11,958 nt of DNA from Promethearchaeota archaeon (lineage in GTDB: Archaea > Asgardarchaeota > Lokiarchaeia > Sigyniarchaeales > SOKP01), in assembly GCA_016840165.1 (NCBI GenBank), contig JAEOSU010000005.1, positions 1 through 11,958 of the forward strand, read 5' to 3'. Within the stretch, counting starts at the first letter, position 1. Every line of letters begins with the position of its first letter. The notes beneath the pieces are model-generated. The model ran no database searches. It saw nothing but the letters and a program-made list of their open reading frames with translations, and was not told the DNA's origin. This document shows, in pieces, positions 359 to 11,958 of this stretch. Position numbers and translations under genes: made by a program.

Positions 359-366
359 AAGGTGAT
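359..366 (+). promoter_or_regulatory. Strong Shine-Dalgarno (AAGGTGAT) for the HIT gene
   Basis: Matches the archaeal GGAGGTGAT anti-16S-tail consensus and lies 5 nt before ATA372. It is identical to the site upstream of rps4. Confidence 0.7.
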
Positions 367-371
367 TAATT

Positions 372-890
372 ATATTTAATGATTGGCTTAGAGCATTAGG
401 AAAGTTAGATTACGTTCAAGGAAAATCAAAACCAAACGTTGACTGCATATTGTGTGCTGTACGCGACAACGATGAAAGAGTGGTGACACTTAAAATTTAT
501 GATGATGAATATATTTTTATTTCCTTAAATCTTTATCCGTATAATCCTGGTCATTTAATGATTATCCCAAATCGACATGTCGCTTCCTTTTTAGAGCTAA
601 CACGTGAAGAAATTATTCATATTAATCGAACTATTCAAGGAATTCAGCTCCTCTTAGATGATTTATATAGCCCAAAAGGATATAATATCGGAATTAACCA
701 AGGAATTATTGCGGGTGCAAGTATAGAGCACCTCCATATTCATATTGTACCTAGATATGGTGCTGAATTGGGGTATATAGATATTGTAGGGAAAACTAGA
801 ATAGTAGTTGAGGGCTTAGACTCTGTTAAACAAAAATTAACTGAAAATATACATAACTTTTTGAATAAAGAGTTTTACGAGAGCTTCTAA
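372..890 (+). CDS. HIT-family nucleotide hydrolase (Ap4A hydrolase/FHIT-like), probable non-AUG start
   Basis: Has the histidine triad HLHIHIVPR and the NLYPYNPGHLMIIP motif. The frame extends upstream of TTG450 as (I)FNDWLRALGKLDYVQGKSKPNVDCILC, which restores the family's N-terminal 'L.A..R..Y......CxxC' segment. The only in-frame candidates after the SD are ATT369 and ATA372, and an in-frame TGA lies at 363. Confidence 0.88.
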   Translation: MFNDWLRALGKLDYVQGKSKPNVDCILCAVRDNDERVVTLKIYDDEYIFISLNLYPYNPGHLMIIPNRHVASFLELTREEIIHINRTIQGIQLLLDDLYSPKGYNIGINQGIIAGASIEHLHIHIVPRYGAELGYIDIVGKTRIVVEGLDSVKQKLTENIHNFLNKEFYESF

Positions 891-2703: not shown

Positions 2704-2787
2704 TACAAATAATAAAATTTGGATAAAATAAAATCAAATTTAAATTGAAAGAAGAATAATATGAATTACAAAATCTAAGGGATAATT

Positions 2788-3345
2788 ATGTCATATCGGG
2801 GAAAAGTAATTCTTTGTGGTGATCCAGGAGTTGGAAAAACAAGTTTATTAGCTCGATATGTAGATAAGAAATTTAGTGAGGAATATCATCAGACTATTGG
2901 CGCTAATTTTCTTATCAAAGAAATTGACCTGGGCAAAATAATTGACAAATTAAAATTAAAAAACGAAGATTTAAAGGCAGATATTAAGGACAAGGGCTTT
3001 AAACTGTATTTCTGGGATATTGGGGGTCAAACGGATAAACTTTTCGCCAATGAATACTATTTTATTCAAGCTGTCGGCGCTATGATTATTTTTAGTTTAG
3101 GAAACTATGAATCCTTCAAAAATCTTGATTTTTGGATATCAAAACTCAAAGAATTGAGTGGGGATGTTCCTTATATTATTGTTGGAAATAAATCAGACTT
3201 AAAAAGAGAAGTTGATGTTGAGTTTATTAATGAGAAAACCTCGGAATTGAGCGTTGATTATTTAGAGACTTCAGCATTATTGAATAAAAATGTCAATGAA
3301 GCATTTGAACGATTATCAATTCACATTCTAAATAATATTAAGTGA
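2788..3345 (+). CDS. Ras-superfamily (Rab-like) small GTPase
   Basis: G1 GDPGVGKT, G2 YHQTIG, G3 WDIGGQ, G4 GNKSD, G5 ETSAL. No C-terminal Cys prenylation motif. Ends at a TGA stop. Confidence 0.95.
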   Translation: MSYRGKVILCGDPGVGKTSLLARYVDKKFSEEYHQTIGANFLIKEIDLGKIIDKLKLKNEDLKADIKDKGFKLYFWDIGGQTDKLFANEYYFIQAVGAMIIFSLGNYESFKNLDFWISKLKELSGDVPYIIVGNKSDLKREVDVEFINEKTSELSVDYLETSALLNKNVNEAFERLSIHILNNIK

Positions 3346-7150: not shown

Positions 7151-9145
7151 ATGTCTGATACTCAGACCAATGTTAGAATTGGCGTTTATATATGTAGGTG
7201 AGGAGTTAATATCGGTGCAACCGTTGATTGCGATGCGGTAAAAGAAGCTGTAGAATACCTTCCCAATGTGGTGGTAACGCGAACTAATGATTTTACGTGT
7301 AGTGATCCGGGGCAAAATATCATTAAAAATGATATTATCGAATTAGATTTAAACCGAGTGGTTGTTGCAGCATGTACTCCTAAGATTCATGAGCCAACAT
7401 ACCGTGCAGTTTTAACAGAAGCAGGTTTAAGTCCATATTTCTTTCAAATGGTAAATCTACGAGAGCAATGTGCCTTTGTCCATCCTGATAATAAAGAGGC
7501 TGCAACAAAAAAGGCGATACGATTGGTTCGAGCAGGAATCAACAGAGCTCGTGAATTAGAAAGAATCCCCCGTAAGCAAATACCTGTTGAACATGCAGTC
7601 CTCATAGTGGGTGCGGGAATTGCTGGTATGAATGCAGCTTTAGATTTAGCAAATCAAGGCATAGCCGTACATTTAATCGAGAAAGAACCCACCATTGGTG
7701 GAAAAATGGCACAATTAGACCGAATTTATCCTACTGATGACTGTGGGATCTGAGTTCTTGCTCCAATAATGGTGAATACTTCAAAACACCCCAATATTAC
7801 ATTATACACATATAGTGAAGTAGTGGAGTTTAGTGGTATACCAGGTAATTATCATGTTAAAATTAAAAAACATCCACGGTTTGTTGATGAGAAAAAATGT
7901 ACGGGCTGCGGATTATGTACGACTAAATGCCCTATTAATGTACCAAGCGAATTCAATCGTGGGATTGGTGAAAGGGAAGCCATATTTATACCATTCCCTC
8001 AGGCCGTTCCGAAATATGCGGTTATTGATAAGTCTGTTTGTATCGAATGTAAAAACTGCGAACGAATATGCCCTGCTGAAGCAATAAATTTCGAGCAGAA
8101 TGAAGAATTAATCGATATTTCAGTAGGAGCGATTATTGTAGCTACTGGATATGATGAATATCCAATTATTACATCTAATGAATATCATTATGGTCTCTTT
8201 CCCGATGTAATCACTCAGATAGAACTGGAACGATTGCTCAGCCCTATTGGTCCAACTGAAGGCCATGTTTACAGAATATCTGATGGGAAAATTCCAAAAA
8301 AGATAGCAATGATACAGTGTGTAGGCTCAAGAAGTTTACGAGGAAATCAATATTGCTCAGCAGTGTGCTGTAATGTTTCATTAAAGAATGCTCAATTGTT
8401 AAAACAAGAATACCCTAACATGCAAATCACTATTTTTTATATCGATATTCGTACAACAGATAAAGGTAATGAAGAATATTTCAGAAAAATTCGAGAACAA
8501 GGTATTAATTTTATTAAAGGGAAACCAGGTGATATTAAATTAAACAAAGATGGCAGCTTAAGATTATATTTTGATTATTCATTACTTGATGATGTTACAC
8601 ATATGGATTTTGATTTGGTAGTCCTCTCTACGGGAATGGTCCCGTCGAAAGGAACAGAACAAATCACTAAAATCATGGGTTTAAGCACTGGCCCTAATGG
8701 ATTTTTATCAGAAATACATGGCTGTTTAAGTCCCCAAGAAACGAAGAAAACTGGGATCTATATATGCGGTTGTGCATCAGGTCCTAAGAATATTCCCTAT
8801 TCAGTCTCTTCGGCTTTGGCAGCTGCGAGTAAGGCTTCCACTCTTTTATCTCACGATGTTATCAGCCAAGAATTAATTATTGCGGAAGTTGATGAGGAAT
8901 TATGTATGGGCTGTCATCGATGTGAAAAATTATGTGAATATGATGCGATAAAAGTAGATGAAAACGAGATTGCGAGGGTGGATGAGCTTACATGTAAAGG
9001 ATGTGGAGTCTGTGTGACCTCCTGTCCTGCAAGAGCAATCGATCTTAAATACTATCGAGAAAAACAATTTAAAGAAGAAATTAAAGGAATTGGAGCTGTT
9101 TTTCCAAAACCGAGGAAAGAACCGGCTGCAATCAAGGATAATTAA
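7151..9145 (+). CDS. hdrA: Heterodisulfide reductase subunit A (FAD/[4Fe-4S] flavoprotein), selenoprotein with two Sec (U17, U201), 664 aa
   Basis: ATG7151 follows the SD AAGGTGG. One frame reads MSDTQTNVRIGVYICR-UGA(7199-7201)-GVNIG...VVVAACTP...VNLREQC...IVGAGIAG...IYPTDDCGI-UGA(7751-7753)-VLAPIM... and joins the listed ORFs 7268..7753 and 7769..9145. Contains QCVGSR, YCSAVCC and four CxxCxxCxxxC ferredoxin motifs. Confidence 0.95.
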
Positions 9146-11315: not shown

Positions 11316-11810
11316 ATGAGTTCTTTAACTCCGATTCGACCAAAAAATTTTCGTGAAAAGGTTTTTTTCCGTAATCTTCGCTCTCAAGTTGATGGAAATG
11401 CTAAAATCGAGCATGGACTAACTCAAATTAGAGGTGTGGGCAGAAGGTTCGCCCAAGCTGTAGTCAAAGTTGCTAAGATAGATCCTAATATCCGTGTTGG
11501 AGTCATTTCCGAAAAAGATATCGCTCGAATCGAAGAAATTATATTAAAACCCGTAGAAAATGGGATTCCCGAGTGGATGGTCAACCGAAAAAAAGATTTA
11601 AGAACCGGAGAAAATCTCCATCTTATCGGAAATACGCTTGAAATCACCGTTAAACGCGATATTGACCGAATGAAACGAATTAAAAGCTATAAAGGAGTCC
11701 GCCATCATCTAGGATTAAAAGTACGAGGACAAAAAACGAAAAGTACGGGTAGACACGGTCTTGTTATCGGAGTTATTCGTAAAAAACTTAAAAAAACAAA
11801 ACAACAATAA
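11316..11810 (+). CDS. rps13: 30S ribosomal protein uS13
   Basis: GLTQIRGVGRRFA, IPEWMVNRKKD..TGE..HL, SYKGVRHHLGLKVRGQKTKSTGR. ATG11316 is preferred over TTG11304. Confidence 0.97.
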   Translation: MSSLTPIRPKNFREKVFFRNLRSQVDGNAKIEHGLTQIRGVGRRFAQAVVKVAKIDPNIRVGVISEKDIARIEEIILKPVENGIPEWMVNRKKDLRTGENLHLIGNTLEITVKRDIDRMKRIKSYKGVRHHLGLKVRGQKTKSTGRHGLVIGVIRKKLKKTKQQ

Positions 11811-11816
11811 GGTGAT
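11809..11816 (+). promoter_or_regulatory. Strong Shine-Dalgarno (AAGGTGAT) for rps4, overlapping the rps13 stop
   Basis: TAAGGTGAT overlaps the rps13 TAA and lies 5 nt before ATC11822. Confidence 0.75.
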
Positions 11817-11821
11817 TAATT

Positions 11822-11958
11822 ATCGGAGATCCACGCCGCTTAAAAAAGAAATTTAAAAAACCAAAAAATCCGTTCGAAAAAGAACGACAAAGGGAAGAAC
11901 TGGAGTTCATAGGAAAATACGGGCTCCGCAACAAACGAGAATTCTGGAAAGCACGAAC
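11822..11958 (+). CDS. rps4: 30S ribosomal protein uS4, 3'-truncated; apparent ATC start
   Basis: ATC-GGA-GAT-CCA... translates as (M)GDPRRLKKKFKKPKNPFEKERQREELEFIGKYGLRNKREFWKAR, the classic archaeal uS4 N-terminus (MGDP, YGLRNKRE). Sits in the canonical rps13-rps4 order. Confidence 0.93.
   Translation, partial: MGDPRRLKKKFKKPKNPFEKERQREELEFIGKYGLRNKREFWKAR

Follow-up and report, generated by a model that had tools for sequence, protein, structure and literature searches.

Putative AUA and AUC start codons behind precisely spaced Shine-Dalgarno sequences in a Lokiarchaeial genome

Asgard archaea possess a eukaryote-like initiation machinery that is thought to be strict about AUG. ATT, ATC and ATA are formally allowed as start codons in NCBI translation table 11, as rare exceptions, and in bacteria a few genes are known to start at AUU or AUA behind strong or extended Shine-Dalgarno (SD) sequences: infC and pcnB of E. 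coli (AUU), and infC (AUA), cvfC1 (AUU) and ccpN (AUA) of S. aureus. The AUU and AUA starts of S. aureus behind extended SD sequences give about 10-30% of the reporter output of AUG (PMC13009471). Canonical SD-led initiation in archaea is exemplified by the aEF1A mRNA of P. abyssi, in which GGAGGUGAU is followed by AUG and whose model mRNA reads GGAGGUGAUUUAAAUG (PMC6237735). The aIF1 of S. solfataricus is reported, in the account given by the citing text of PMC6237735, to discriminate against non-canonical starts, so that tolerance of AUH (AUA, AUC or AUU; ATH in the DNA) would be unexpected here. On this subject a 2026 review says only that Lokiarchaea rarely have SD sequences, and a full-text literature search turned up no paper that describes AUH starts for Asgard archaea.

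We analysed a window, meaning the whole stretch of DNA, that is one entire contig of 11,958 bp from a Lokiarchaeial genome of 3.6 Mb (31.6% GC, 105 contigs). All genomes used were metagenome bins (MAGs), the relatives being non-independent samples, and the source genome has an estimated contamination of 6.3%. From sequence comparison, a HIT-family gene and the gene of ribosomal protein uS4 in this window very probably start at ATA and ATC, respectively, six bases behind a GGTGA ribosome-binding site. They resemble the bacterial infC/pcnB/ccpN type in that a near-cognate AUH codon stands at a homology-defined N-terminus, is conserved and follows a strong SD at proper spacing. They also share with canonical archaeal SD-led initiation, as in P. 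abyssi aEF1A, the same anti-SD, the GGUGAU core and a similar spacing, and differ from it in having AUA or AUC instead of AUG, GUG or UUG. Unlike in the bacterial cases, an essential ribosomal protein is included, and the machinery is of the archaeal/eukaryotic type (aIF1, aIF1A, aIF2 and a Met-tRNAi with A1:U72), not IF3 and fMet-tRNA.

An earlier note on this DNA had pointed to one 15-mer shared by the two starts. An exact pattern search agreed, finding AAGGTGATTAATTAT at 359-373 and at 11809-11823, both on the + strand; the match between the two loci ends at exactly 15 nt, and the flanking bases differ. The 15-mer was also said to end in the first two bases of an ATH codon at the expected start, and in both genes the N-terminal Met of the homologues indeed aligns there. 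It consists of the 7-nt SD AGGTGAT and, after 5 nt of AT spacer, the opening two bases of the non-AUG start codon. At its 3' end, located where contig C49 ends, the 16S rRNA of this genome has the canonical sequence ...GGATCACCTCCT; AGGTGAT pairs with the AUCACCU in it and is therefore a 7-bp SD. The features are listed in Table 1.

Table 1. Features of the two initiation regions in the window, and further genes of the genome with a predicted ATH start.
Feature	Positions	Strand	Remarks
15-mer, copy 1	359..373	+	exact match; 1 of only 2 in genome
Shine-Dalgarno AGGTGAT of HIT-family gene	360..366	+	7-nt complement of own 16S 3' end
AT-rich spacer TAATT	367..371	+	6 nt from end of GGTGA core; spacing is the genome-wide optimum
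Putative ATA start, HIT-family gene	372..374	+	aligned start codon of 80 orthologues
HIT-family (ATP adenylyltransferase-like) CDS, 172 aa	372..890	+	Pfam HIT and DcpS_C matches
uS13 CDS	11316..11810	+	NCBIfam uS13_arch and Pfam Ribosomal_S13; ATG is codon 5 of open frame
15-mer, copy 2	11809..11823	+	exact match, between uS13 and uS4
Shine-Dalgarno AGGTGAT of uS4	11810..11816	+	complementary to own 16S 3' end
Putative ATC start, uS4	11822..11824	+	position 1 of profile TIGR01018/PRK04051
uS4 CDS, N-terminal 45 codons, gene cut by contig end	11822..11958	+	NCBIfam uS4_arch, E 1.6e-13
Ras-family GTPase			Pfam domain from residue 9; next canonical codon 84
GFO_IDH_MocA oxidoreductase			Pfam domain from residue 2; next canonical codon 42
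NAPRTase (NAPRTase_N)			Pfam domain from residue 8; next canonical codon 15
GDPD			Pfam domain from residue 7; next canonical codon 10
AMP-binding enzyme			Pfam domain from residue 33; next canonical codon 36

Alignment to the archaeal uS4 profile TIGR01018 pairs its position 2 with the Gly codon directly after ATC 11822, which puts the ATC at the Met position, and none of the 45 uS4 codons on the contig is ATG, GTG or TTG. The codon before GDPRRLKKK was then compared between the window and 29 relatives. For the genus, counting the window, it was ATC in 10 cases, ATA in 2 and ATG in 9; all eight genomes of another family of the order had ATG, which brings the ATG total to 17. A full GGTGA lay 5-6 nt upstream in 12/12 ATH uS4 genes (window included) versus 9/17 ATG uS4 genes. 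In a uS13 tree, which was built on one short protein and has limited resolution, the non-AUG uS4 starts were restricted to a 15-species clade (12/15 ATC or ATA, 3/15 ATG), and three start-codon changes accounted for all uS4 start codons. As a start, ATC is rare genome-wide, heading only 1-2 of 85 GGTGA-N6 ORFs, so that uS4 is atypical even among ATH-led genes.

The HIT-family protein, which the NCBIfam ATP adenylyltransferase model matched weakly, has 785 homologues, many of them full length with the N-terminus MF..WL.ALGKLDYVQG. The alignment of its orthologues (80 loci) begins at residue 1, that is, at ATA 372. The next ATG, GTG or TTG of the gene is TTG 450, which lies 26 codons downstream within a conserved CxxC motif, and a start there would drop the conserved N-terminal segment together with the first Cys of that motif. 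Among 80 species-level genomes the start codon was ATT in 57, ATA in 3, ATC in 2, ATG in 15, TTG in 2 and CTG in 1, a count that allows a start one codon upstream where present; non-AUG starts of the ATT/ATA/ATC type were thus found in 62/80 species. A full GGTGA was present 5-7 nt upstream in 46 of these 62 genes and none of the 62 lacked an SD-like motif, whereas among the ATG or TTG genes a full GGTGA was seen in 1/17 and no SD-like motif in 10/17. The relatives are non-independent samples, but the trend ran the same way throughout. The spacer sequence was not conserved among the orthologues. In other families of the order (three single-contig genomes among them), the HIT orthologues are about 50% identical and N-terminally extended, with an upstream in-frame ATG or TTG usable as a start. 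The ATT start is therefore seen only among the close orthologues (at least 65% identity), which we take to be this Lokiarchaeial family.

Both copies of the 15-mer read TGA TTA ATT ATH in frame, the TGA (within GGTGA) lying two codons 5' of the proposed start, and the real start in both genes might accordingly be the preceding codon, ATT (369-371 and 11819-11821), so that the proteins would be one residue longer. ATT is the commonest non-AUG start genome-wide, and the NCBI start of one HIT orthologue (P0006) is placed two codons upstream of the aligned position. With this ATT, however, the spacing from GGTGA would shrink to 3 nt, below the 5-7 nt that is optimal genome-wide, and the uS4 profile puts Met at the ATC. 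Furthermore, the orthologues always have a start-like codon at the aligned position but not at the one before it, where gta, aag, aaa, gaa and others occur. A start at the upstream ATT is thus improbable in our judgement. Even less can be said for the idea that ATA and ATC stand for an ATG that was misread in sequencing, misassembled or lost in a pseudogene. Each differs from ATG by one base, and the contamination of the metagenome bin is estimated at 6.3%, but the same aligned codon is non-AUG in dozens of independently assembled genomes, which effectively refutes this idea; the earlier note had argued against sequencing error from the two cases alone. The proteins are otherwise intact and conserved, and the uS4 N-terminus is single copy in the genome. 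We give an error practically no weight.

The genome as a whole was scanned by taking all GGTG sites and asking which codons open an ORF of 100 codons or more that has an in-frame stop at most 15 codons upstream. ATG, TTG, ATT and ATA all peaked at a distance d of 10-12 from the first G of GGTG, where the control AT-rich codons TAT, TTA and TTT dropped to about zero. Both window sites, with GGTGA plus 6 nt (d = 11), lie within this optimum. ATT and ATA together accounted for 52/243 at d = 10-11 versus 117/1309 at control distances (OR 2.8, p = 1.3e-7). When the full pattern was considered, as the earlier note had proposed for gene starts against background, GGTGAT-N5-ATH was found to be enriched: 13 of its 122 sites head an ORF of at least 100 codons, compared with 7/1142 for other sense codons (OR 19, p = 1.5e-9). 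The same arrangement with ATG, GTG or TTG heads a long ORF at 12/72 sites. A looser test, which took any 5-mer complementary to the anti-SD 3-15 nt upstream of every pre-canonical-zone codon in 2726 ORFs, gave 6.5% for ATT versus a background of 4.5%, and no excess for ATA; it was too noisy and was replaced by the position-specific scans.

After background subtraction, roughly 38 excess ATH starts were obtained behind GGTG versus about 107 excess ATG, TTG or GTG starts. ATH codons appear to make up about a quarter of the GGTG-led starts, slightly less without ATH-ATG doublets. In this genome the ATH-led genes with 100 codons or more may number roughly 40, compared with a handful per bacterial genome, although GGTGA-N6 puts a TGA in frame and read-through or a Sec codon, not a start, could account for some of the candidates across the genome. 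In five further predicted ATH-led genes (Table 1) the Pfam domain begins before any canonical start, and three more, two ABC ATPases and an HTH_34 protein, are borderline. The Ras-family GTPase gene of this set (contig C78:13204-13728, - strand; locus L111) begins at ATT behind GGTGG plus 7 nt, and its P-loop lies upstream of codon 84.

The above findings led us to a common reading of the two window loci. At neither gene is there an ATG, GTG or TTG between the upstream TGA and the conserved N-terminus, the start position being occupied by ATA 372 and ATC 11822. Both N-termini are defined by homology, have no canonical alternative, are kept across species and follow a strong SD; in the orthologues of uS4 as well as HIT, ATG and ATH interchange at one aligned codon. 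We are confident that both 15-mers would be ordinary translation initiation regions with an unusual AUH start, and that the habit would be lineage-wide in this Lokiarchaeial family. The earlier proposal, a strong SD with a fixed spacing that allows AUH codons to serve as starts in this lineage, is supported by these swaps between ATG and ATH, with the GGTGA kept 5-7 nt upstream, with the scan and with the Pfam domains.

The position of the two starts relative to upstream frames raises another reading, in which ribosomes that end an upstream ORF restart at the nearby AUH by termination-reinitiation, with no de novo start, and the SD mainly tethers the post-termination ribosome. The uS13 stop TAA (11808-11810) abuts the uS4 SD, 11 nt before the ATC; the HIT start comes 30 nt after the end of an open frame at 342; and the spacers are rich in TAA and TGA. 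The frame upstream of HIT, however, has no family match and hence is only a putative gene, and many ATH starts genome-wide, as well as HIT orthologues, follow long AT-rich non-coding stretches. Decoding of AUH by the initiator would still be required, so that reinitiation would modify the main explanation and not replace it. We consider reinitiation unlikely as the account of these starts, if somewhat less so than a start at the upstream ATT, and retain SD-led initiation at the AUH codon.

A separate question is what the exact identity of the two 15-mers means. All 15 nt are the same, both copies sit on one 12-kb contig, and no third exact copy of AAGGTGATTAATTAT was found on either strand of the whole 3.6 Mb genome; within the window, no further copy turned up at two or fewer mismatches (0.15 expected from shuffles). 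Such a pair could be a discrete cis-element that co-regulates both genes beyond SD and start, whether a protein or small-RNA site, a mobile unit or a repeat. Yet the identity stops at 15 nt and no additional copies exist to form a family. From position frequencies, 0.075 pairs identical across the 15-mer are expected among the 25 GGTGA-N6-ATH sites of the genome, and 0.35 among all 58 start-like GGTGA-N6 sites. Moreover, the spacer and the two 5' bases of the 15-mer vary even in the nearest relatives at both loci; for instance, the uS4 site of relative L002 is GGTGATTAAA-ATC and the HIT site of relative L031 is GAGGTAGATAATT-ATA. With two genomic copies only, and the whole unit not kept at orthologous sites, the 15-mer does not behave as a dispersed repeat or a shared cis-element. 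Because the spacer is unconserved and 0.075-0.35 pairs are expected, we regard the identity as coincidental and a discrete cis-element as very improbable. The 15-mer is not a special element: its exact identity is a mild coincidence atop a real common architecture.

In the mechanism that we propose, the SD duplex at a fixed distance (GGUGA plus 6 nt) would place the AUH codon in the P site, and a normal Met-tRNAi with its CAU anticodon would be accepted there despite the third-position mismatch. Initiation from AUH would probably be lower than from AUG, tunable and dependent on the stringency of aIF1, and AUH starts may have a regulatory role. The initiator tRNA-Met gene (contig C49:11031-11168, + strand), which was located by a pattern search and then read by eye through its two introns, is canonical in its CAU anticodon, its three G:C pairs (G29-31:C39-41) and A1:U72. 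No fidelity-altering change, for which inspection had been suggested, was found in this tRNA, and nothing in it would account for relaxed selection. Start selection by the initiation factors may be relaxed. ARAGORN, run with or without intron mode, found 11-22 tRNAs and no CAU tRNA among them, and an Rfam tRNA search of the genome gave 20 matches. The two introns of the initiator gene lie after position 37 and in the T-loop region, and the gene shares contig C49 with the 16S 3' end and aIF1.

The aIF1 (SUI1) open frame (C49:34399-34737, - strand; locus L130:1462-1800) contains no ATG, GTG or TTG before codon 57, which falls inside the SUI1 domain (residues 29-100). The arrangement "GGTTGTGA, nine bases, then ATT AAA GA" is kept in aIF1 of 18 genus members, and the conserved ATT lies four codons after an in-frame TGA. 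In the genomes of other families aIF1 has ATG, GTG or TTG, except for two that have no canonical start before the zinc knuckle. In bacteria the fidelity-factor gene with a non-canonical start is infC; aIF1 may be a similar case, and its putative weak start would suggest a possible infC-like feedback. Tentatively, and with less than even expectation that it holds, we propose that aIF1, encoded by an AUU-led mRNA, might set start stringency in a feedback loop, and that an AUH regulon comprising uS4, the HIT enzyme, small GTPases and about 40 others might be tuned by the aIF1 level. Such a loop would be convergent with bacterial infC/IF3 and with the poor-context autoregulation of eukaryotic eIF1. 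If this is true, the archaea closest to eukaryotes would use near-cognate initiation as a programmed level of gene control.

With an essential ribosomal protein, a proofreading factor and dozens of enzymes predicted to use AUA, AUU or AUC as start codons at a precise distance from an SD, practical as well as mechanistic issues arise. The family would offer a natural system for asking how SD anchoring overrides the fidelity of aIF1, aIF1A and aIF2, and whether the lineage closest to eukaryotes uses weak starts for regulation. On the practical side, the codons found here are likewise allowed by table 11, and gene callers limited to ATG, GTG and TTG truncate these genes. The protein on record for this contig (P0015) has 146 aa from TTG 450 and misses the first 26 residues, which are conserved and contain the first Cys of the CxxC, a Cys of the zinc-ligand type; records of relatives include 161-aa HIT calls that begin inside KLDYVQG. 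Several NCBI records of relatives already begin the HIT protein at ATT (P0044 and P0045, compared with loci L040 and L037), so mis-annotation depends on the gene caller. The mis-annotation of starts that the earlier note had expected to be systematic is borne out by the 146-aa call on this contig but is not universal. Removal of N-termini by ATG/GTG/TTG-only gene finders affects domain and structure predictions for Asgard proteomes, which are widely mined for eukaryotic signature proteins.

A third apparent ATC start in the window, at 7211 behind GGTGA 7197-7201, was rejected, because this TGA lies in the reading frame of an HdrA-like gene as a codon of the Sec type. This heterodisulfide reductase gene (7151-9145, + strand) starts at ATG 7151 and has in-frame TGA codons at 7199-7201 and 7751-7753, the first of them sitting within the SD-mimicking GGTGA. 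Both fall at Cys positions of HdrA homologues (CR-U-GVNIG and DDCGI-U-VLAP), and the predicted product is therefore probably a two-selenocysteine protein. Elsewhere in the window, an archaeal histone-fold protein (PF00808; 945-1181, - strand) has a Lys/Ala-rich N-terminal tail (MAKKKAPAKKAES...) and starts at an ATG behind GGAGG, and a Ras/Roc-family small GTPase (2779-3345, + strand; Pfam Ras, E 1.4e-36), typical of Asgard genomes, starts at ATG 2788.
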